From positions 385,511 to 449,510 of the forward strand of contig JBAZSC010000001.1 in the NCBI GenBank assembly GCA_041662665.1: a stretch of 64,000 bases of DNA, given 5' to 3'. A program made the position numbers and the translations under genes. The notes below the pieces were generated by a model. That model made no database searches and was not told the DNA's origin. It worked only from the letters and a program-made list of their open reading frames with translations. Within the stretch, counting starts at the first letter, position 1, and each line of letters opens with the position of its first letter. Below, piece by piece: positions 11,066-61,455 of the stretch. The DNA is from Patescibacteria group bacterium. Lineage in GTDB: Bacteria; Patescibacteriota; JABMPQ01; JAQVVF01.

Positions 11066-12352
11066 ATGAAAAATTTACTTCAAAAAATTTTAAAAAGTAT
11101 TTCAAAATCTATTCTCAAAAAACATAATCCAATCATCATCGGTGTTACCGGCAGTGTCGGAAAAACTGGAACAGTTGAGGCTATTTATCATGTCTTAAAA
11201 AATAAATTTTCTGTCAGAAAAACAATTGGCAATTATAATAATGAAATTGGTTTGCCTTTAACAATTATCGGCGAAAAAACAGCTAATCGTTCAATTTTAT
11301 GTTGGTTAAATATTTTCAATAAAGGCATAAAACAAATTTACTCAAAAGATTATCCAAAAATTTTGGTTCTTGAAATGGGAGTAGATAAACCAAATGACAT
11401 GGATTATCTGTTAAATTTAGCAACTCCAAATATTTCTGTAATAACTGCAATTGGCAAAAAACCAGTTCATGTTGAATTTTTCAAAAGTCCAAAAGAATTA
11501 GTTTCAGAAAAAACAAAAATAATTACTAATTTGAAATCAACAGAAACAGCAATTTTAAATTATGATGACATTGCAGTTCGCTTATCAGCCAAGCAAACAA
11601 AAGCAAAAACAATCACTTTCGGTTTTACAAAAGGATCAGAATTGCAAGCAGATAATTTAACACTTAATGCCGATTTTTCGCAAGGACAAAGTTTGCAAGG
11701 CTATAGTTTCAAAATGCGCTATCAAGGCAAAGAAGTTCCAGTCAGATTAAAAAATATTTTTAGCAAAACTCAAATTTACGCAGTACTAGCAGCAGCTGCA
11801 TGTGCAATTTCAATGAAATTTAATTTAATTGAAATTTCAGAAGCGCTATACGATTATCAATCTCCAAAAGGAAGAATGAATTTAATTCCTGGAATTAAAG
11901 GAACATATTTAATTGATGACTCATATAATGCCTCGCCAGAAGCAACATTATCAGCTCTAAATGTTTTAAAAGAAATAAAAACATCTGGCCGAAAAATTGC
12001 CTGTTTAGCTGACATGTTAGAATTAGGAACTATGACAATAGAAGCCCACAAAGATGTCGGTAAATCAGCATCTCAATCAGCAGATTTTATCGTTGCAGTT
12101 GGCAAGGCTTCAGAATATATTGCATCAGAAGCAATTAAATTTGGTTTTCCAAAAGACAAAGTTTTTACATTTCAAAATTCAGAAGAAGCCGGACTTTTCG
12201 TCCAAAATAAAATTTTAAAACCTGGCGATATTGTTCTCATCAAAGGCTCACAAAGCATGAGAATGGAAAAAATAACCAAAGAATTAATGGCAGAGCCAGA
12301 AAAAGCGCCAGAATTGTTAGTTAGACAAAGTACTGAATGGTTGAAAAAATAA
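11066..12352 (+). CDS. murF: UDP-N-acetylmuramoyl-tripeptide--D-alanyl-D-alanine ligase
   Basis: P-loop GVTGSVGKTGT, Mur-ligase central and C-terminal domains, dcw-cluster context. Confidence 0.8.
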   Translation: MKNLLQKILKSISKSILKKHNPIIIGVTGSVGKTGTVEAIYHVLKNKFSVRKTIGNYNNEIGLPLTIIGEKTANRSILCWLNIFNKGIKQIYSKDYPKILVLEMGVDKPNDMDYLLNLATPNISVITAIGKKPVHVEFFKSPKELVSEKTKIITNLKSTETAILNYDDIAVRLSAKQTKAKTITFGFTKGSELQADNLTLNADFSQGQSLQGYSFKMRYQGKEVPVRLKNIFSKTQIYAVLAAAACAISMKFNLIEISEALYDYQSPKGRMNLIPGIKGTYLIDDSYNASPEATLSALNVLKEIKTSGRKIACLADMLELGTMTIEAHKDVGKSASQSADFIVAVGKASEYIASEAIKFGFPKDKVFTFQNSEEAGLFVQNKILKPGDIVLIKGSQSMRMEKITKELMAEPEKAPELLVRQSTEWLKK

Positions 12353-12358
12353 GTACAG

Positions 12359-12390
12359 TAGGGAACAAAAATTTTTGTTCCCTATTTTTA
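12359..12390 (+). terminator. Intrinsic terminator after murF
   Basis: TAGGGAACAAAAA-TTTTTGTTCCCTA followed by TTTTT. Confidence 0.7.
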
Positions 12391-12494
12391 AGAATTATGC
12401 ACAATAAAGTATAGTTTGTTTTTAAAACAAAAAAGTTGTATACTTAAATAAACAACGAACTAATGGCGAGTTATAAAATAATTTGCAATAAGTT

Positions 12495-15400
12495 TTGATT
12501 TATAAAAACAAAATGGATAATTTTAATATAATCAAAAAAGTACGAGGGGGGGGGCTTAATGGAAAAGTAAAAATTTTTGGTATTTCAAAATACAAGATTC
12601 TTTTGAGTCTTTTTTTTATAGCAATTTTTTCTGTATTGTTTCTTTCATTATCAGTTGCGCAAGCGGCATATAGAGACGTGATTGAAGCTGATTCTCCTAT
12701 TTATTATTGGCCGATGGATGAAGCGGCTGGAGCAACAAGTTTGTCCGCAGTAGTTGGTGGCACGGCAATTAATCTTACTGGCGCGACTGCTGGAGAAAAT
12801 GGACAAGTAGATGGAACAGCAGTTTCTTTTAATGGTACATCTAATTTTGGACAAACTGCATCAAGTATTAACCTAACTTCTTATAGTAAGGTTTTAGTTG
12901 AGACATTAGTTTATTTTGATAATTATGATGCATCAGGAGGATTAATGGTATGGGAACTTGGTTCAAGCATAGCAACACAAACAACAGGTTTTTATTTTTC
13001 ATCTAAGAATGGAAATTCACCTAATGATAAGTTTGCACCTGCCGTCAAAGGTAATGTAGGTTACAATTATGCACAGTATGCACAGGCATCACTACAAACA
13101 TGGCATCATATAGTTGCTGTGTTTGATAAAAGTGTTGCTACGGATGAAGTGAATTTATATGTGGACGGGATATTACAAACAGCTGAGTCAAGACCATTAA
13201 ATCTTGATAATACAAATAATTTTGGAAATTCAGTTTTATATTTAATGAGTCGCGCAGGAACATCATTATTTAATGGTGGTAAAATGCAGCATCTAGCAAT
13301 TTATACTAATTTAAGTGATACAAAAATTTTTGATCATGCTCAAGCTTCTGGAGTTTTACATTTTTCAGGTGGTACTGTGTCGGAATCTTCTCATACTGCA
13401 AACTCGGCAACATTGTTATGGACACATTCATTGTATGGTACAGATCCTATAACGGAACAATTGCAACGAAGTTTGCATGGATTAGATACTTGGTCAGATG
13501 TTAGTGGAGCTACTTTAAGTCCGGCGACTGATTCCGGATTAAGTTCTGATACAAGTTATGATTATAGAGTTGTATATACAGATGCAACATCGGCAACTGT
13601 TTATTCCAATATTGTTACTGTTACGACTAATAAAATTTATCCACCGTATATAGCTAATTCAGATAAAGTAATTGTTGGTCCTTATGATACAGCGCAATCC
13701 GGTTCACCTGCAAATTTTGGAGTTACTGGAGGACATACAAACATGGAGCTTTTGATGAAAGCGCATAAATATAGAATGCGTCAGGATGGTATTGTTAACA
13801 GAGTTCGTCTATATACTGTAAATAAGACAAATCTTACTGGATTTTATATAAGGATTTGGCGAAAAAATGGATCAACATATGATTTAGTTGGTACTAGTAA
13901 TAATATTGTGGATAGTTTAGTTGCCGGAGATTTTGCTACTGTTGATCTTTCTTCTCCCATCATCGGAGTTTTGGAGGGTGATTATATTGGCATGCGAATT
14001 GAATCAAATGGTATCCAAAATTTTTATGCTTATAGTCCTGGAAGTGCAGCCACTTATTACATGTTTGATACTGCTATTTCATCAACTAGCATGGATTGGG
14101 AAAGTAAGACTACTGCTAGCGGGGTAATGCCAGTAGAAATTTATATGCAGGCACCGCAAGTGGCATTTATTGGTGATTCAATTATATCTGGGCATTATAC
14201 AAATTATAGTTTTCTTCATACTACTGAGACAACAAATATTCCTTCAACGCTAGAACGACAATTTAGTAATTTGACGGGCTATACTTATCAAAATATGGGT
14301 ATTGGTGCTCAAACTTCTACACAAATAGCTGCTCGCTTTACTCAAGATATGATAAATTTACATCCGCGAGTCGCTGTTATTGAAGCTGGAGTAAATGATT
14401 TTGGTTCTTATGATCCTGCTACATCTAAGGCAACACTTTTGGCAAATTGGACAAGTATGCTTGATGCCGCACAAGCGAGTGATAGTATTACAACGATTTT
14501 AGTTGTGAAGATTCTTCCTTGGTCAAATGGCACAAATTCTCAAATGCAGATTAGGGATGATTGGAATTCTGCGATTGCAACTTTGGCTGCTGGTTATTCA
14601 AAGGCTATTGTTGTAGATACAAGTAGTTATGTAGGTCAATTTAGGCCTGGAGGAGATGTCGGAAATTTATGGGATATACAAGCCGCTTATGATCAAGATG
14701 GTGTTCATTTTACTCAAGCAGGAAATGGTCAGATTGCGCAAGCATTAGCGGGTGTATTAGATAGTACTGCTCCAGCTACAACTGCAACTCCTACTGGCGG
14801 AATTTACAATATTTCAAAAACTGTAACTTTATCTTGTGATGATGTTAGTGGTCAAGGATGTAATAAAACATATTATACAACTGACGGAACGGATCCAACG
14901 ACTAATTCATCTGAATATGTTTCTCCTTTAGACATTTTTTCTAACACAATTCTAAAGTTTTTTTCTGTCGATGTTGTTGATAACCAAGAATCAATTAAAA
15001 CAGAAAACTATGTTATAGATACTATTGCTCCAGTTACAATTGCTTCTCCTGCTAGTGGAACTTATACATCGACTCAAACTGTTACTTTAACAGCAGTTGA
15101 TAGTAATACAGGAGTTAGCAAAACATATTACACAACCGATAGCACAGAACCAACCACATCATCTTTAGTCTATTTATCACCAATTGAAATTAATCAGACA
15201 ACAACTCTCAAATTCTTTTCAGTCGATAATGCTGGAAATATTGAAAACATTAAAACAGAAAATTACATAATTATTACATCAATTCCTTTTATCGAAAGAA
15301 TCAATCTTGAAGATGCAGTCTTAAATCAAACCTATCAAAGTCAACAAAATAATGCTGATCTTCTTTTCTATCTTCTTCCTAAACAAAAATCAATCAAAGA

Positions 15401-15896
15401 TCTATATATTAAATTAATCAGAAACAAGAAGAAGCATCTTAACGGTTTTACAAAAAAGAACAGTTATCCAGGATACTTAAAGCTATTATCAAATATCGGC
15501 ACAGTCAAAAAAGCTTATCAAAAAAATGTTAACAAGCATATTAATTTTAGAATTTCAGTCAGATATTCAAAAACAAAATTAAACAAGACGAATATCAAAG
15601 AAAAAAATCTAAGATTATTCATTAAAGACAGAGACAATATCTGGCGAGGACCATATCGAATATACCAAAACAAAATAACGCATACACTAAAATTTAAAAT
15701 CAGAAATTATTTAGTTAAGCCTCCAAAGAATCCAATTCCAAATCCGTTAGACATTAAAACAAAGAACCGACCATTTGCTCCATCATTTTACTTCAGAACA
15801 TTAAAAAAGATTAAGTTTGTCATTGCAGAAAAGAATGCCTTATCTAATTTAACTAATTTAGAAACATCGGATAGCCAAGATTTCTTCTTTGAGTAG
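12495..15896 (+). CDS. Large secreted multidomain surface protein (1133 aa): signal peptide, LamG/ConA-like lectin domain, FN3-like domain, SGNH/GDSL hydrolase domain, two chitobiase/beta-hexosaminidase-C-like (CHB_HEX_C-type) modules, Lys-rich C-terminal domain
   Basis: LamG-like region WHHIVAVFDK...LYVDGIL. SGNH blocks FIGDSIISG, GVND and DGVHFT. Repeated TDGTDPTT...TLKFFSVD modules. The C-terminal basic domain is shared with 42796..44889 and 59596..61455. A G9 tract lies at 12546-12554 within the 5' end. Confidence 0.6.
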   Translation: MIYKNKMDNFNIIKKVRGGGLNGKVKIFGISKYKILLSLFFIAIFSVLFLSLSVAQAAYRDVIEADSPIYYWPMDEAAGATSLSAVVGGTAINLTGATAGENGQVDGTAVSFNGTSNFGQTASSINLTSYSKVLVETLVYFDNYDASGGLMVWELGSSIATQTTGFYFSSKNGNSPNDKFAPAVKGNVGYNYAQYAQASLQTWHHIVAVFDKSVATDEVNLYVDGILQTAESRPLNLDNTNNFGNSVLYLMSRAGTSLFNGGKMQHLAIYTNLSDTKIFDHAQASGVLHFSGGTVSESSHTANSATLLWTHSLYGTDPITEQLQRSLHGLDTWSDVSGATLSPATDSGLSSDTSYDYRVVYTDATSATVYSNIVTVTTNKIYPPYIANSDKVIVGPYDTAQSGSPANFGVTGGHTNMELLMKAHKYRMRQDGIVNRVRLYTVNKTNLTGFYIRIWRKNGSTYDLVGTSNNIVDSLVAGDFATVDLSSPIIGVLEGDYIGMRIESNGIQNFYAYSPGSAATYYMFDTAISSTSMDWESKTTASGVMPVEIYMQAPQVAFIGDSIISGHYTNYSFLHTTETTNIPSTLERQFSNLTGYTYQNMGIGAQTSTQIAARFTQDMINLHPRVAVIEAGVNDFGSYDPATSKATLLANWTSMLDAAQASDSITTILVVKILPWSNGTNSQMQIRDDWNSAIATLAAGYSKAIVVDTSSYVGQFRPGGDVGNLWDIQAAYDQDGVHFTQAGNGQIAQALAGVLDSTAPATTATPTGGIYNISKTVTLSCDDVSGQGCNKTYYTTDGTDPTTNSSEYVSPLDIFSNTILKFFSVDVVDNQESIKTENYVIDTIAPVTIASPASGTYTSTQTVTLTAVDSNTGVSKTYYTTDSTEPTTSSLVYLSPIEINQTTTLKFFSVDNAGNIENIKTENYIIITSIPFIERINLEDAVLNQTYQSQQNNADLLFYLLPKQKSIKDLYIKLIRNKKKHLNGFTKKNSYPGYLKLLSNIGTVKKAYQKNVNKHINFRISVRYSKTKLNKTNIKEKNLRLFIKDRDNIWRGPYRIYQNKITHTLKFKIRNYLVKPPKNPIPNPLDIKTKNRPFAPSFYFRTLKKIKFVIAEKNALSNLTNLETSDSQDFFFE
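12546..12554 (+). repeat. Poly-G (G9) homopolymeric tract inside the 5' coding region, upstream of the signal peptide
   Basis: gagggggggggc; the only long G/C homopolymer seen in this AT-rich window. Confidence 0.85.
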
Positions 15897-24334: not shown

Positions 24335-25051
24335 ATGCCAGAAAGAGAACAATTAACTCAAAAAGATATTCAAGGCCCAGAAAAAGAAACATCAGAGCCA
24401 GGTCTTGAAATTGCAAGAACACCTGAATCAGAAACAGTTGTAGATTTAGCTAATGAACTGCACGAAGCAATACAAAATGATTCGCCAATTACTTATGGAA
24501 AAGTTGAAGACTTTAGAGAAGCTTTGGACCAATTAAAATTTAATATTGGCGGAGAAATGATGACAGCCGAAGAAGCAAGAAAGATTCCTGATTTAAAATT
24601 GAATATGGAAATTTGGAAAAGGATAAAAGTCGGTGATTATTCGACTTCGACTATTACTCAAATGACTTATGTAAGTCTAGAGGTAGCAGATATTCTTAAA
24701 AACGTAGGAACTGTGCGTTTGCTAAACGTAAAATATTTTCCTAGCTCAATATTGAGAAAATTATGTGAACGAAAAGGTTATCTTACGCTTGGAATTGAAG
24801 AAATTTCTGATCAAGATGCAGAAATTATTAGTAATCATCAAGGAGAGCTATTTCTTGATAATATAACTCGATTGTCAGTTAAGCAAGCTGAATTTTTAAG
24901 TCAGCATCGAGGACAGCTTTCATTGGCTGGTCTTGAATCATTACCAGATCAAGCAGCAATATATTTCATTGATTTTAAGCATTTTCTTAATGTACAAAGT
25001 AGAATTACAACGCAAATTGGTAGATTAAGAAAAAGGAGTAGAAAGAAATAA
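24335..25051 (+). CDS. Hypothetical protein, paralog A of a tandem duplicate (238 aa), C-terminal leucine-rich-repeat-like segment
   Basis: The N-terminal ~110 aa are ~90% identical to 25082..25594 at the DNA level. The C-terminus has ~24-aa L-rich repeats (ELFLDNITRLSVKQAEFLSQHRGQLSLAGLESLPDQ). Confidence 0.5.
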   Translation: MPEREQLTQKDIQGPEKETSEPGLEIARTPESETVVDLANELHEAIQNDSPITYGKVEDFREALDQLKFNIGGEMMTAEEARKIPDLKLNMEIWKRIKVGDYSTSTITQMTYVSLEVADILKNVGTVRLLNVKYFPSSILRKLCERKGYLTLGIEEISDQDAEIISNHQGELFLDNITRLSVKQAEFLSQHRGQLSLAGLESLPDQAAIYFIDFKHFLNVQSRITTQIGRLRKRSRKK

Positions 25052-25081: not shown

Positions 25082-25594
25082 ATGCCAGAAAGAGAACCAC
25101 TAACTCAACAAGATATTCAAGGTCCTGAAAAAGAATCAGAAAAGATAGGTCTTGAAATTGCAAGAACACCTGAATCAGAAACAGTTAAAGATTTAGCCAA
25201 TGAATTTCACGAAGCAATACAAAATGATTCGCCAATTACTTATGGAAAAGTTGAAGACTTTAGAGAAGCTTTAGGAAAATTGAAATTTAATATTGGTGGA
25301 GAAATGATGACAGCCGAAGAAGTTAAAAAGATTCCTGATTTAAAAATGAATATGGAAATTTGGGAAGAAATTAGACGCCGAGATTATAGAAGAGTAAGGG
25401 AGCTCACTTTCATAATTCCCGATATCTATCATATTATTAGTCAAACTGGTAGAGTTTTTTCTTTAGAAAAAATTGATTCGTTGCCTGATGAAATTGCATT
25501 ATTATTTTTAGATTTTTCTTTCCAAGTAAAGATTTCAGATAACTTCAAAAAACATTTGACTGAATTGTATATAAAAAGAAGCAATAAATCTTAA
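25082..25594 (+). CDS. Hypothetical protein, paralog B of the tandem duplicate (170 aa), shorter divergent C-terminus
   Basis: Shares the promoter-proximal sequence (tttttagttttttaca...ATGCCAGAAAGAGAAC) and the N-terminal domain with 24335..25051. Confidence 0.5.
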   Translation: MPEREPLTQQDIQGPEKESEKIGLEIARTPESETVKDLANEFHEAIQNDSPITYGKVEDFREALGKLKFNIGGEMMTAEEVKKIPDLKMNMEIWEEIRRRDYRRVRELTFIIPDIYHIISQTGRVFSLEKIDSLPDEIALLFLDFSFQVKISDNFKKHLTELYIKRSNKS

Positions 25595-31563: not shown

Positions 31564-32223
31564 ATGCCAAATCAGCAAGATCGAGTTGAAGCCTTGCAAA
31601 GATTGATTCAGCAAAATCAAGTTAATTTTTTTGATGCATTAGCAAATCATCCAGAAAGGCAACAAGCAGCTGTCCAACATCTTTTGCAAGCGCATCGAGA
31701 ATCACTTGAAGAAACAGCAACAGAACAATTTTCGGATGTTCCAGAACAAGCCAGAAGACAAGCTCTTGATCAACACATGCAAAATCTGCAAAGACAAATG
31801 ACATCTTGTTTGGTTGGATTTGCTGGAAATCAATTAGCCTTGTCGCCATTAGTCCATATTGATGATTATCGTCAAACATTATGCTACAAGGTTTGTAAAT
31901 ATTTAGAATCATTGGGTTATAAACTTAGGATTGAAAATTCAAGCAATTTCAGGCATGCTTGCATTTGTTCAACAAACAGAGATACCTTAATCGATATATA
32001 CAAACCGTTGAATGTCAAGGAAATGTCGTGGCTAGGAAAATTATTTTTCTTTTTTACTCCAGATGTAGACGAGGAAGACCTAAATGAAAAGTTGTGTAGT
32101 TTAATGATTACTCATGGAACTATGGAATTTGAAGTTAATGATGGAAATTCTTATAATGAAGTTTTACAACTCGCCAACAACATTGCCCATCTTTTCCAAG
32201 TCGAAATCACTGTACAATTGTAA
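31564..32223 (+). CDS. Hypothetical Gln-rich protein (219 aa), SD-bearing orphan gene
   Basis: Strong SD AAGGAGAAGAGGG 3 nt upstream of the ATG. Modestly GC-richer than its neighbours. Flanked by the CGCTCCCA repeat blocks. No family recognised. Confidence 0.5.
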   Translation: MPNQQDRVEALQRLIQQNQVNFFDALANHPERQQAAVQHLLQAHRESLEETATEQFSDVPEQARRQALDQHMQNLQRQMTSCLVGFAGNQLALSPLVHIDDYRQTLCYKVCKYLESLGYKLRIENSSNFRHACICSTNRDTLIDIYKPLNVKEMSWLGKLFFFFTPDVDEEDLNEKLCSLMITHGTMEFEVNDGNSYNEVLQLANNIAHLFQVEITVQL

Positions 32224-42795: not shown

Positions 42796-44889
42796 ATGAA
42801 AAAATTATTATGTCTTAGTGCGTTGATTTTTTGTCTTACCGCGTTTTTAGGTTTTAACCAAGCAAAAGCTTATACTTTTGACAACAGCGTGCAAGGGAAA
42901 GTTTTTTGGACAAGCATAACTTCGGGTGGTTCAGATAGCTATGGTAGAGCATTAGCATTAGACAGAGAACATTATCCACATATCTGTACCTACTCATCTG
43001 AATCAGGTACTCAATACCTTAGGCATTCTTATTGGAATGGAACAACATGGATAGTTGATACAGTTGATAGCTCCGCAACAGCAGATTTTGGAAAATATTG
43101 TTCTATTGCTGTCAATCAAAATACGGATGTTACACAAATAAGCTATTATTCTGGCACAGCTGGACATGTGCGTTATGCTACTAACGTTTCAGGTAGCTGG
43201 GTTGCAACAAATGTTGATACAACTGCTGATGATACTGGACTATATACTGCTATAGCTTTAGATACATTTGGCGATGCGCATATTTTGTATAGAAATGTCA
43301 CAGATACTGATTTAATGCATGCTACGAATGCAGGTGGCTCATGGACGACCGAAAAATTACCAAATGCAGGGGATAATATTGGTTTTTATAATGCTATTAC
43401 CATAGATTCATCAAACAAAATTGATATTGCTTACAGAGATAATACAGATAGCAAAGCTTATTATAATAACAAATCATACGGTGGAAATTGGAGTAATCCA
43501 GCCACAGAAGTAGGTTCAGCATCTGCTTCAGCAATTTCTATTTCAAAATCTTCAGACAATATCGTCAGAATTTTCTATGTTGCAGGAGGAGAAACGCTAG
43601 AAATGGCATCTCAAAATGGCGCGTCTTGGGATATAACAAATTTAGTTCTAAAATCAAGTACATCTGGCCTAGCAAACTCCTCTGGAATCTATGACAGCGC
43701 AACAGGGGCACATGCAGTCACGGTAGATGGCGTCGAATCCTTTACATATTATGTCAACTATCTTAGTCAATCTGGTATCGACGTGCTTAGTAATACAGCC
43801 GTTAATTCAACTGCAATTGACTTTTACAATGACAATGCATTTATAACATATGTGGGACAAACCTTTGTCCTCCTCGACTCCGTCAACCCCGACGTTTCAA
43901 GTTTTCAAGCCCTCCGCACAGGTTTGTCAGTTGCATACACTTTCACAACTCCTGACTATGCAGAAATGGGTGGCTCAAAATATTTTTGCATTGACGAGAC
44001 AAATACTTGCGATCCAGCAACAGGTACTGCAATTTCATCTGCTTCAACTTCAGGGACATATACTTTATCAGGCAATTCAGCAAATACTTTTTACATCAGA
44101 ATTAGTGATTGGGCTCAGAATCTAAGCGTCATTCCATACAATACAGATTCAACAGCTCCAGTTACAACAGCATCATTAGCTAATGGAACTTTCAATGATA
44201 CCAAGACTACAACATTAACAGCAACAGATTCTCAATCAGGAGTTTCAGCTACTTATTACACTTTAGATGGCACTGATCCAACAACATCTTCAGCAGTTTA
44301 TTCAGGTACAATTACAATTTCAACATCAAAAACTCTAAAATATTTTTCTGTGGATAATGTTGGAAATGCAGAAGCAGTAAAAACAAATACTTACACCATT
44401 ACGCGTTTAATCAAACAAGACAAAAAATTAAAAATTTCCAGTACTAAACAAGGCTTTACATATACTGGAGTCGGATTAAATTTATATTTTACAAGCTTAC
44501 CAGCAAAAGTTACCAAGAATAACAAGTATTGGTTAAAATGGCATAAATATAATAGTTATCCAACTAATTGGGCAAATGCCAGCAATAAGACTTTAAAAAG
44601 ATACTGGAAGTTAAATGATAATACTTCTAAATTGAAAACCAAATTCAAAATGAAAATTGCTTTCAAATACACAAGTAAATTATTAAAAGCTCTAAAAAAG
44701 AAAAATCCAGGCATTAAGAAAAAAGATCTTCGATTACAATATTTTGATTCAACAACAAACAGCTGGAAAAACATCGCCAATGCTTGGCCGAAAGCAAAGA
44801 TACTTGCCAAAACCAAAAAGAATATGATTACAGTCAAATATTTCAACAAGTTTCCTAAAAAAGAATTCTTATTTGCGATTGGATTGTAA
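42796..44889 (+). CDS. Secreted surface protein (697 aa): signal peptide, beta-propeller-like repeats, CHB_HEX_C-like module, shared Lys-rich C-terminal domain
   Basis: Signal MKKLLCLSALIFCLTAFLGFNQAKA; repeated Y..G.W....D units. TDGTDPTTSSAVYSGTITISTSKTLKYFSVDNVGN. The C-terminal ~150 aa are homologous to the C-termini of 12495..15896 and 59596..61455. Confidence 0.55.
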   Translation: MKKLLCLSALIFCLTAFLGFNQAKAYTFDNSVQGKVFWTSITSGGSDSYGRALALDREHYPHICTYSSESGTQYLRHSYWNGTTWIVDTVDSSATADFGKYCSIAVNQNTDVTQISYYSGTAGHVRYATNVSGSWVATNVDTTADDTGLYTAIALDTFGDAHILYRNVTDTDLMHATNAGGSWTTEKLPNAGDNIGFYNAITIDSSNKIDIAYRDNTDSKAYYNNKSYGGNWSNPATEVGSASASAISISKSSDNIVRIFYVAGGETLEMASQNGASWDITNLVLKSSTSGLANSSGIYDSATGAHAVTVDGVESFTYYVNYLSQSGIDVLSNTAVNSTAIDFYNDNAFITYVGQTFVLLDSVNPDVSSFQALRTGLSVAYTFTTPDYAEMGGSKYFCIDETNTCDPATGTAISSASTSGTYTLSGNSANTFYIRISDWAQNLSVIPYNTDSTAPVTTASLANGTFNDTKTTTLTATDSQSGVSATYYTLDGTDPTTSSAVYSGTITISTSKTLKYFSVDNVGNAEAVKTNTYTITRLIKQDKKLKISSTKQGFTYTGVGLNLYFTSLPAKVTKNNKYWLKWHKYNSYPTNWANASNKTLKRYWKLNDNTSKLKTKFKMKIAFKYTSKLLKALKKKNPGIKKKDLRLQYFDSTTNSWKNIANAWPKAKILAKTKKNMITVKYFNKFPKKEFLFAIGL

Positions 44890-59595: not shown

Positions 59596-61455
59596 ATGAA
59601 AAAACATTTTCTTGGGAGTATTATTTTTGCATTTCTATTTTTTGTTTTCAGCTTTTTTTTAAACAATCAAGCGTTTGCCAGAACGAGCTCAACTTGGAGC
59701 GCAGTTGGTACTTCCGGAATGAACGCCTCAGTTGATGCCTTAGCAGTTTATAATAATGAATTGTATGCTGGTGGATCTTTCACAACAGCTGATGGGATCA
59801 CAACAAATTGTATTGCAAAATGGAATGGCACGAGCTGGAGCAAAGTTGGTTCTACTGGCTTTACAGATGGAGACGTATATAGTTTAGCAGTTTATAATAA
59901 TGAGTTATACGCTGGCGGATCTTTTGGCACAATAGATGGAATTTCCGCGTTTGCTATTGCAAAATGGAATGGAACAGCCTGGAGTAAGGTAGGTACTATT
60001 GGCATGAATGGTGCAGTCAATGCATTAGTCGTATATAATGACAAATTATATGCCGGAGGTGATTTTACAACAGCTGATGCAGCTCCAGTTTTTTATATCT
60101 CTGCATGGAATGGTACTGTCTGGAGTGCAGTTGGTTCTTCGGGAATGGACAATGATATTAAATCATTAGCTACTTTTAATAATGAGTTATACGCCGGAGG
60201 AGCATTTACTACTGCAGATACAAACACTGTTAATCACATTGCTGTTTGGAGTGGTACTACTTGGAGCGCGGTCGGTTCTTCAGGAATGGACGGTAATGTC
60301 AATGCTTTAGCCGTTTTTAATAATCAATTATATGCTGGAGGAGCATTTACTACTGCAGATGCAAATACCGTTAATCGTATTGCAGTATTAAATGGGGCAA
60401 CTTGGAATGGGGTTGGCTCCTCAGGAATGGATGCGCAAATTAATACTTTTGCTGTTTACGATAATAATTTATATGTTGGAGGACAATTCACTACAGTAGA
60501 TTCAACAGCAATCAATTATATTGCTAAATGGAATGGAACTTCTTGGAGTGCTGTTGGTTCAGGCACAAATGGCAAAGTTTCAGCTTTAGAAGTTTACAAC
60601 GATGCATTATATGCAGGAGGATCTTTTACAGTTGCTGGCGGAATTACTGCGAATAGAATTGCCTCTTGGTTTATCGACTATATTGCTCCAACAACAACAG
60701 CCTCACCAGCTGGCGGTACATATGAAACAGATCAAACAGTAACATTAACCGCAACTGATGCAGATTCAACAATTTCAGCAACATATTACACTACTGACGG
60801 AACTACTCCAACAACTTCATCAACAGTTTACACTTCGCCAATTACAATTTCTCAAGATACAACTCTTAAATTCTTTTCAGTCGACAGTCTAGGAAATTCA
60901 GAAGAAGTAAAAACAGAAACATATATTATCGATCGTACAATTATCGCTGAAAGACATCTTAAAAAAGGAAAAAAAATCTATCTCTATTCAGGTTTGAATA
61001 GCAAGCAAATCGAAGGCAAGTCATTAATTATCAATTTTACTAAATTACCAAACAAATTAACAAAGAATCATAACTATTGGATTCAATTTGTTAGACATTC
61101 TGCTTATCCAGGAAGTCTAGAGCTTGGCTCTCATTTATCATTAAAAAAGTATTGGACATTTAAGACAAATTTAAATAAATACAAAGCAAAAAATTCAGAT
61201 CAGAAATTCAAATTTAAAATTGCCTACAAATATACAAAAAAAGAATTAAAAGCATTAAAAAAGATAAATCCAGCAATCACTCAAAAAGAGCTTAGACTGA
61301 AATATCGCGTTAAAGCTGGTTTGAACTGGTATCCAATTAGCAATAATTGGAAAAATGCAAAAATAAAACATAATACCTCAAAAAAGAAATTTATAGTAAA
61401 ATATTTCAAGAAATTTGCAAAAAGTACATATTATTTTGCGATTATTAAAAAGTAA
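59596..61455 (+). CDS. Secreted surface protein (619 aa): signal peptide, seven Kelch/beta-propeller-like ~48-aa repeats, CHB_HEX_C-like module, shared Lys-rich C-terminal domain
   Basis: Repeats W(N/S)GT.WS.VGS.GM.G.V.ALAVYNN.LYAGG.FTTAD. TDGTTPTTSSTVYTSPITISQDTTLKFFSVDSLGN. The C-terminal ~160 aa are homologous to 44400-44889 and 15300-15896. Confidence 0.55.
   Translation: MKKHFLGSIIFAFLFFVFSFFLNNQAFARTSSTWSAVGTSGMNASVDALAVYNNELYAGGSFTTADGITTNCIAKWNGTSWSKVGSTGFTDGDVYSLAVYNNELYAGGSFGTIDGISAFAIAKWNGTAWSKVGTIGMNGAVNALVVYNDKLYAGGDFTTADAAPVFYISAWNGTVWSAVGSSGMDNDIKSLATFNNELYAGGAFTTADTNTVNHIAVWSGTTWSAVGSSGMDGNVNALAVFNNQLYAGGAFTTADANTVNRIAVLNGATWNGVGSSGMDAQINTFAVYDNNLYVGGQFTTVDSTAINYIAKWNGTSWSAVGSGTNGKVSALEVYNDALYAGGSFTVAGGITANRIASWFIDYIAPTTTASPAGGTYETDQTVTLTATDADSTISATYYTTDGTTPTTSSTVYTSPITISQDTTLKFFSVDSLGNSEEVKTETYIIDRTIIAERHLKKGKKIYLYSGLNSKQIEGKSLIINFTKLPNKLTKNHNYWIQFVRHSAYPGSLELGSHLSLKKYWTFKTNLNKYKAKNSDQKFKFKIAYKYTKKELKALKKINPAITQKELRLKYRVKAGLNWYPISNNWKNAKIKHNTSKKKFIVKYFKKFAKSTYYFAIIKK

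Follow-up and report, generated by a model that had tools for sequence, protein, structure and literature searches.

The closest described relatives of the element reported here are the poly-G/C contingency loci of Campylobacter jejuni, Helicobacter pylori, Haemophilus and Neisseria, which vary by slipped-strand mispairing; in such classical families, ON and OFF copies are usually mixed. In the Neisseria opa genes, CTCTT repeats lie within the region coding for the signal peptide. The Mycoplasma vlp and vsp families combine a conserved, switch-bearing 5' region with mature regions that differ across paralogues, the vlp tract being in the promoter spacer and the vsp/vsa genes relying on a site-specific recombinase. 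Programmed frameshift sites such as those of dnaX (A-AAA-AAG), IS911 and Bacillus subtilis cdd (CGA-AAG) represent another kind of element, a Lys slip with an upstream Shine-Dalgarno (SD)-like element. Patescibacteria (the candidate phyla radiation, CPR) are tiny bacteria, many of them episymbionts, and to our knowledge little is known about variation of their surface proteins apart from diversity-generating retroelements (DGRs). Here we describe a run of nine G residues (G9) near the 5' end of a gene for a large surface protein, found in a 64,000-nucleotide (64-kb) stretch of a Patescibacteria metagenome-assembled genome (MAG; assembly GCA_041662665.1, contig JBAZSC010000001.1, positions 385,511 to 449,510), which we call the window and number from its first base. 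We hold with moderate confidence that this run is a slippage-prone on/off contingency switch in a conserved translated leader cassette, ON at G9.

How does this locus compare with the known systems? As in the poly-G/C contingency loci, a G run of at least 8 is found in a genome of ~30% G+C, near the 5' end of a surface-protein open reading frame (ORF) that is immediately truncated by a change of one G, and the tract recurs on several surface paralogues with a length of 9 versus 10 between relatives. The locus departs from them in its uncultured CPR host, in having all paralogues ON and one copy start-less, and in carrying a block of 46 nucleotides (nt) that is conserved at the nucleotide level; switching is here a prediction from sequence. 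Placement in the leader and signal-peptide region is shared with opa, with a homopolymer instead of a pentamer. Like the Mycoplasma families, the paralogues join a conserved 5' region bearing the switch to differing mature regions, but the tract lies in a translated leader, as annotated, rather than in a promoter spacer, and a Pfam check of ten window ORFs revealed no site-specific recombinase. The frameshift sites of dnaX, IS911 and cdd resemble the locus in its slippery A-AAG followed by a stop, its G-rich run ending 10 nt upstream, its nucleotide-level conservation, and a −1 product that matches orthologue N-termini (MEKV...); the resemblance fails in the shift at codon 3, the lack of a tandem X-XXY-YYZ heptamer and of a downstream structure, and the SD-less host. 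A full-text literature search found no report of a poly-G contingency switch in Patescibacteria; were this a slipped-strand contingency locus, the mechanism would be familiar and, as far as that search goes, only the phylum new.

Is the tract more than a chance run? Nine G occupy exactly positions 12546-12554, in the context gtacga-GGGGGGGGG-cttaatgg (in a longer reading, ...aatcaaaaaagtacga GGGGGGGGG cttaatggaaaagtaaaaattttt...). Elsewhere in the window, whose G+C content is 31.9%, a homopolymer census found G/C runs of length 4 at most (18 G-runs and 5 C-runs) and none of 5-8. Base composition or a first-order Markov model predicts ~0.007 G-runs of nine or more, and the single run observed is thus a ~150-fold excess. 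Both the exact position and the claim of an earlier note that this is the sole long G/C homopolymer in 64 kb of AT-rich DNA were confirmed. The tract is therefore over-represented and longer than the ~7-8 G/C from which such runs are hypermutable. A requirement for glycine cannot account for the homopolymer, because GGG is a rare glycine codon here, at 2.3% (in 28 trusted window genes, 20 of 869 glycine codons, the tract not counted); from this codon usage, three GGG in succession have a probability of ~1.2e-5. What is maintained seems to be the run of nucleotides itself.

Two-colour Illumina chemistry is known to generate spurious poly-G, and a sequencing or assembly artefact, for example from poly-G dark-cycle reads, had to be considered as an explanation. 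The tract, however, is internal, with unique flanks on both sides. Besides the MAG, it is present in the Logan assembly of run SRR18595301 (contig L001, also G9) and, as G10, in a JGI contig from a different sample, and the Gly-Gly-Gly leaders of two further paralogues mirror it. Since L001 carries G9 too, the tract is no artefact of a single assembly; with three independent assemblies excluding it, the artefact explanation is so improbable that we regard it as effectively refuted.

What would a change in tract length do? The only canonical in-frame starts upstream of the tract are TTG 12495 and ATG 12513, the latter 33 nt before the tract begins, and the next one after it is TTG 12603, within the hydrophobic core of the signal peptide. 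When tract lengths were altered in silico and translated from ATG 12513, G9 (3n) alone read into the signal peptide. G10 (or G7) gave MDNFNIIKKVRGGGA with a stop after 15 codons, and G8 (or G11) gave MDNFNIIKKVRGGGLMEK, i.e., ...RGGGLMEK, with a stop after 18 codons; in the frames entered with G8 and G10, a stop follows within 2-5 codons. A change of a single repeat unit abolishes the full-length product, conditional on start 12513. The geometry described in the earlier note, with the tract between the only in-frame starts and the signal peptide, agrees with our reading, and so, given the same start, does its expectation that gain or loss of one G shifts the frame ahead of the secretion signal.

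These properties suggest that a slippage-prone G9 forms part of the conserved 5' leader cassette found on a small family of Patescibacteria surface proteins. Translation would start at ATG 12513 and pass through an 11-codon leader, MDNFNIIKKVR, and Gly-Gly-Gly into the signal peptide. If replication slipped to G8 or G10, a frame with an early stop would come into use, and the lectin/esterase surface protein would not be made; slippage back to G9 would restore it. We infer the use of ATG 12513 as the start, and likewise tract-length variation within populations and selection on such variation.

The leader is not confined to one gene. The peptide KKVRGGGLNGKVK is common to the window protein, P0001 (MFA6296113), and to P0002 (MFA6296650, 804 amino acids [aa]) and P0011 (MFA6296560, 1317 aa), which by their accession numbers belong to the same MAG; the N-termini of the latter two read MYFFNTKINKKVRGGGLNGKVKFF(S/G)ISKYKILLSLFF. 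The central domains of the three proteins differ, while a C-terminal cassette of ~200 aa is nearly identical. This genome has at least three paralogous surface-protein genes with a Gly3 leader, each in frame with an upstream ATG. A longer JGI call of P0002 (P0053) includes ...IIKTN-M, which would back-translate to the same AAAACAAAT-ATG context, and its distance from ATG to tract differs from that in the window by exactly two codons, so that the frame is kept. When the 51-aa leader was run exhaustively with phmmer against 1.84 billion representative proteins, only P0001 and P0011 matched; the leader is confined to a very small clade. Scans of genome contigs, with a degenerate cassette pattern and with the exact 3' half, gave no match, nor did a scan of viral contigs for the cassette, and a profile search with an alignment of four leaders returned no scored matches.

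Which start codon is used? An SD-like motif was present at 1 of the 48 window ORF starts inspected, ribosomal-protein genes included; the genome is essentially without SD usage. This scarcity agrees with the description of a Parcubacteria subgroup without anti-SD (PMC9297842); the 16S rRNA gene is not in the 64-kb window. Trusted starts have A/T-rich upstream sequences in which positions −20 to −1 contain 1.45 G on average, and ATG 12513 has 1 G in that interval. In a position weight matrix (PWM) of start contexts built from 40 trusted starts (training mean 4.6, SD 3.1), ATG 12513 scored 1.5, the 92nd percentile of all ATGs. The motif AAAACAA, which immediately precedes ATG 12513, occurs within 25 nt upstream of 6 of the 40 trusted starts versus 0.53 expected (11-fold), and all six of the genes so preceded encode secreted or membrane (envelope) proteins. 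Together, the PWM score and the AAAACAA context support the annotated start. The n-region from ATG 12513 is 28 aa long, compared with at most 10 aa in other exported window proteins, and looks like an appended extension hosting the tract. An alternative start at the in-frame ATT 12573, used directly or by re-initiation after the MEK mini-ORF, was rejected as a general route: the codon is TTT there in P0002 and P0011.

Some further observations concern initiation in the window at large. SD-scarce, A/T-rich and G-depleted upstream regions are seen, for example, at starts 2211, 2828, 48690, 49570 and 50332, an exception being the 219-aa ORF at 31564 (no Pfam match), which has a strong SD-like AAGGAGAAGAGGGAA directly before its ATG. 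The extended motif (T)AAAACAA(A) lies upstream of starts 16083, 23370, 30581, 33101, 42796, 59596 and 12513, and may be a class-specific translation-initiation or regulatory motif.

A scan of metagenome contigs for the cassette returned a single match, L003 (Ga0172379_10051331), with CAAAAAAGTACGA-G10-CTTAATGGAAAAGTAAAAATTTTT. Its flanks of the tract (13 + 24 nt) are identical to those of the window at 37 of 37 positions; the next 30 nt upstream are identical at 23 of 30, and beyond that identity falls to a 32% background on both sides. The protein encoded downstream is only 52% identical to P0002 and P0001. The sole difference within the perfectly conserved block is the G count, as would be expected of a slippage-prone tract, although the lengths compared (G9 in the window and L001, G10 in L003) come from different genes and lineages.

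Several observations weigh against the switch, and the first group comes from L003 itself. It has no ATG, GTG or TTG upstream of the tract in any frame, stops occur in all three frames within 8-14 codons upstream whatever the tract length, and the codon at the position of ATG 12513 is AAC, two substitutions away. Its ORF is nonetheless open for more than 600 codons and has a good signal peptide, and the gene is probably maintained without an upstream start. With its ORF intact, this start-less copy means that an upstream start is not universal for the cassette. The 13 nt to the left of the tract are, moreover, conserved although in L003 they are in another frame, or unread; identity across two frames implies constraint or gene conversion acting on nucleotides, not on the peptide. 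As for tract length, all three paralogues are in the ON frame, and the tract is G9 in the MAG and again in the Logan assembly of that run. Contig L001 passes through the tract unbranched and ends 8 nt beyond it. We considered that end as a sign of heterogeneity and rejected it: in a k=31 graph, a length variant would cause a break where the tract ends, whereas this contig continues for 8 nt more. Collapse of the graph onto the repeat that the paralogues' cassettes form, or a drop in coverage, would explain the break better.

The closest orthologues without the cassette also count against the switch. P0003 (contig L005) reads ttttATGGAAAAAATTAGA, or MEKIR, in which ATGGAAAAAATT encodes MEKI, and P0029 (L006) reads ttttATGGAAAAAGTTGAAATT, including ATGGAAAAAGTTGAAATT, or MEKVEI. 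The string TT.ATGGAAAA is invariant in a four-way alignment (A3) of cassette genes and cassette-less orthologues. In the cassette, a single A is missing from the A-run seen in L006 (ATGGAAAA-GTAAAAATT). This 1-nt deletion puts the corresponding ATG 12559 +1 out of frame, with GAA AAG TAA after it; in the main frame, KVKI takes the place of KVEI in P0029. It would seem, then, that translation ancestrally began 4 nt beyond the tract, that the leader and the G run are an addition, and that the cassette was joined to a 5' end older than itself. As a start today, ATG 12559 is very atypical: its PWM score of −15.1 is in the 1st percentile, and it has 11 G in positions −20 to −1 versus the mean of 1.45. 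The signal-peptide region at 12559-12600 is homologous to L005 419-460 and L006 677-720 with further indels (AGATTC is shared, after which lengths differ). Positions 1-23 of L005, at the very end of the contig, are a (GA)n run of ~11 units, probably an assembly-end artefact or a microsatellite.

The earlier note's proposal of a phase-variation switch thus stands in part: the tract, its placement, the truncation, the three paralogue leaders and the G9/G10 difference speak for it, while length variation within a population would still be a prediction, both assemblies of the strain being G9. Initiation downstream of the tract, which the note had named as evidence that would overturn its proposal, also received a divided answer. 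The context of ATG 12513 is typical and that of 12559 is not; L003, on the other hand, has no upstream start, and the ancestral ATG lies downstream.

Which other mechanisms would account for these facts? The tract could lie in a 5' untranslated leader, with translation starting at ATG 12559. In a programmed −1 shift at codon 3 (A-AAG-UAA), tRNA-Lys would then leave AAG and re-pair with AAA, UAA being in the A site. The product would be MEKVKIFGISKYK... (MEKVKIF...), with a signal peptide of normal length, and the G run, its 3' end 10 nt before AAG, would act as an SD-like element for initiation or for frameshift stimulation. Tract length would be nearly neutral, and G9 versus G10 would be tolerated. 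Such a mechanism would suit L003, which has no upstream start and in which the cassette ATG is the first ATG after an extended −10 box. It would also suit the invariance of TT.ATGGAAAA between cassette genes and cassette-less orthologues, the match of the −1-shifted MEKVKI to MEKVEI of L006, and the perfect conservation (37/37 nt) of ATG, A-AAG and TAA where the upstream frame differs. A slip codon and a slow A site are present (G-GAA-AAG-TAA), though a full X-XXY-YYZ heptamer is not. The host argues otherwise, with SD motifs at 1 of 48 genes only and a Parcubacteria subgroup described as lacking anti-SD (PMC9297842), and so does the start, ATG 12559 being no credible zero-frame start with its first-percentile score and 11 upstream G. 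Nor does RNA folding downstream reveal a structure common to the window and L003: the folds differ, and their z-scores are −1.2 and +1.1. The mini-ORF may be a by-product of the codons CTT AAT GGA AAA GTA AAA for L-N-G-K-V-K, ungapped similarity to L005 past the shared ATGGAAAA is marginal (p ~0.05), and in two independent variants of the cassette the initiation motif is followed at once by an ATG in frame. We consider such frameshifting unlikely. Decidedly unlikely, too, is a combination of two routes, in which the upstream AUG would give high expression only when the poly-G length is 3n and a −1 Lys slip from the ancestral AUG would give low constitutive expression. The slip at A-AAG-UAA would then be the sole route in L003, the upstream AUG in the window would be newly recruited, and poly-G slippage, if this were true, would toggle high versus low expression, not on/off. 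The displaced ancestral start and the start-less G10 copy are real oddities that keep frameshift-dependent expression alive at this low level of probability. A structured RNA element at this site was rejected, with fold energies no different from those of shuffled sequences and folds that are not conserved.

The tract could instead be a passively inherited, Gly3-coding piece of a gene-converted or recombined leader cassette that slips occasionally without being an adaptive switch. All three paralogues being in frame, the finding of G9 only in two assemblies of the strain, and the restriction of the leader to a tiny clade (only P0001 and P0011 among 1.84 billion representatives) are in keeping with this, and the conservation of 5' and 3' ends around different middles suggests concerted evolution. 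The codon anomaly (p ~1e-5) and the absence of any other G/C run longer than 4 argue instead that the homopolymer itself is maintained, and its length does differ in L003 (G10); passive inheritance is therefore possible but, in our estimate, rather unlikely. Recombination would give the cassette yet another role, as a site at which surface-protein bodies are swapped in the manner of the Mycoplasma vsa/vsp shufflons, with L003-like copies silent and the G run incidental. The block of perfect identity is indeed sharply bounded within unrelated flanks, L003 is start-less yet its ORF is intact, and the family shares both a 5' block and a 3' cassette. Against a shufflon, a search of the 64 kb turned up neither a further copy of the block nor an inverted one, no recombinase or invertase was recognised in the ten window ORFs compared with Pfam, and each of the three genome paralogues has its own upstream ATG; we judge it very unlikely. 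A promoter with the G run as spacer, picked out by eye, was rejected as well: of its hexamers, TCAAAA and CTTAAT, the second lacks the A expected at position 2, and transcription from it would begin only beyond ATG 12559.

The surface proteins of CPR bacteria presumably mediate host attachment and phage exposure. If the on/off switch is real, stochastic surface variation of the kind known from pathogens would extend to Patescibacteria through a small lectin/esterase family. For gene callers and MAG comparisons, such genes would flip between intact and frameshifted with the consensus tract length, and the displaced ancestral start opens a route to testing what determines initiation and frame in bacteria without SD.

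Table 1. Sequence features of the G9 locus and related parts of the window (positions in the window; the arrow marks the cleavage site)
Feature	Position	Strand	Remark
Perfect hairpin TAGGGAACAAAAA/TTTTTGTTCCCTA, then T-run	12359..12390	+	Inverted repeat I2, 13 nt, 100% complementary
Promoter-like TTAAGA-16-TATAGT	12388..12415	+	Consensus scan, 9/12 matches; ~100 nt upstream of ATG 12513
Short upstream ORF ATG GCG AGT TAT AAA ATA ATT TGC AAT AAG TTT TGA	12463-12498		In the putative leader, between predicted promoter and ATG 12513
A-rich, G-poor initiation context TAAAAACAAA	12503..12512	+	Directly precedes ATG 12513
Coding sequence of P0001 (MFA6296113), 1127 aa	12513..15896	+	NCBI and JGI annotate identically
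5' cassette core CAAAAAAGTACGA + Gn + CTTAATGGAAAAGTAAAAATTTTT	12533..12578	+	46-nt block, nucleotide-level conservation versus L003; n is the G count
G9 homopolymer	12546..12554	+	Codons GGG GGG GGG = Gly12-14
Out-of-frame (+1) mini-ORF ATG GAA AAG TAA	12559..12570	+	ATG homologous to starts of cassette-less orthologues
Signal-peptide hydrophobic core and cleavage region (KILLSLFFIAIFSVLFLSLSVAQA↓A)	12594..12665	+	Direct sequence reading
C-terminal cassette, ~200 aa, Lys-rich	15285..15893	+	Nearly identical in P0002 and P0011
Two CHB_HEX_C proteins weakly similar to the C-terminal cassette	42796-44889 and 59596-61455		Similar parts 44317-44562 and 60847-61299

The gene lies on a 645-kb contig of the MAG, and its ORF spans 12495-15896, preceded by an in-frame stop (TAA) at 12489. 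In order, P0001 consists of the leader, a signal peptide, a LamG lectin domain, a beta-sandwich region, a GDSL esterase, two CHB_HEX_C modules and the Lys-rich C-terminal cassette. The lectin, esterase and Ig-like modules named in the earlier note were matched by a Laminin_G_3/ConA-like lectin domain (E = 1.3e-8), the GDSL esterase and the two CHB_HEX_C/Fn3_assoc Ig-like modules. With its signal peptide, this composition is that of a surface or host-interaction protein, as contingency loci commonly encode. The signal peptide ends in AQA↓AYRD, a site that aligns with mature N-termini of orthologues (...HA↓DYRDTIE, ...QA↓AYSDTIAG and others). Exact-protein look-ups of the gene product from starts 12495, 12513 and 12603, and of P0002, P0011 and P0053, found no record.

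The C-terminal cassette of P0001 has no Pfam match and may be a lineage-specific anchoring domain. It also exists as a stand-alone 228-aa protein in another Patescibacteria MAG, and the only matches to a search with it were two homologues that stand alone. Conservation among the three paralogues is ~95%, and two further CHB_HEX_C surface proteins encoded in the window have C-terminal portions weakly similar to it (32-35%). The 228-aa homologue, P0051 (67% identity), lies in L004, positions 107-2788 (GCA_028699085.1, JAQVVF010000017.1), directly after a bAvd gene and one for a reverse transcriptase (RT), a DGR-like arrangement. No template/variable (TR/VR) repeat was detected within 3.6 kb near P0051, and a tblastn search of the window with the RT and bAvd proteins of L004 gave no match.

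Upstream, the gene is neighboured by dcw-cluster genes (rsmH, ftsL-like, ftsI and murF, the last at 11066-12352), and downstream by the gene for a second surface protein of 1427 aa. The hairpin between murF and the tract-bearing gene, to which a terminator scan gave no score (loop length 0), likely terminates murF, and the surface-protein gene would accordingly be its own transcription unit. Promoter-type matches in the window are no commoner than in shuffled sequences, and the promoter-like match ahead of the gene is weak evidence. Elsewhere in the window, a ribosomal protein L10 leader (RF00557) is predicted at 1983-2124, upstream of rplJ at 2211, with a score just at the gathering threshold. 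Two adjacent paralogous ORFs, 24335-25051 (no Pfam match) and 25082-25594, have near-identical N-termini (MPEREQLTQKDIQGPEKE... and MPEREPLTQQDIQGPEKE...) and upstream sequences.

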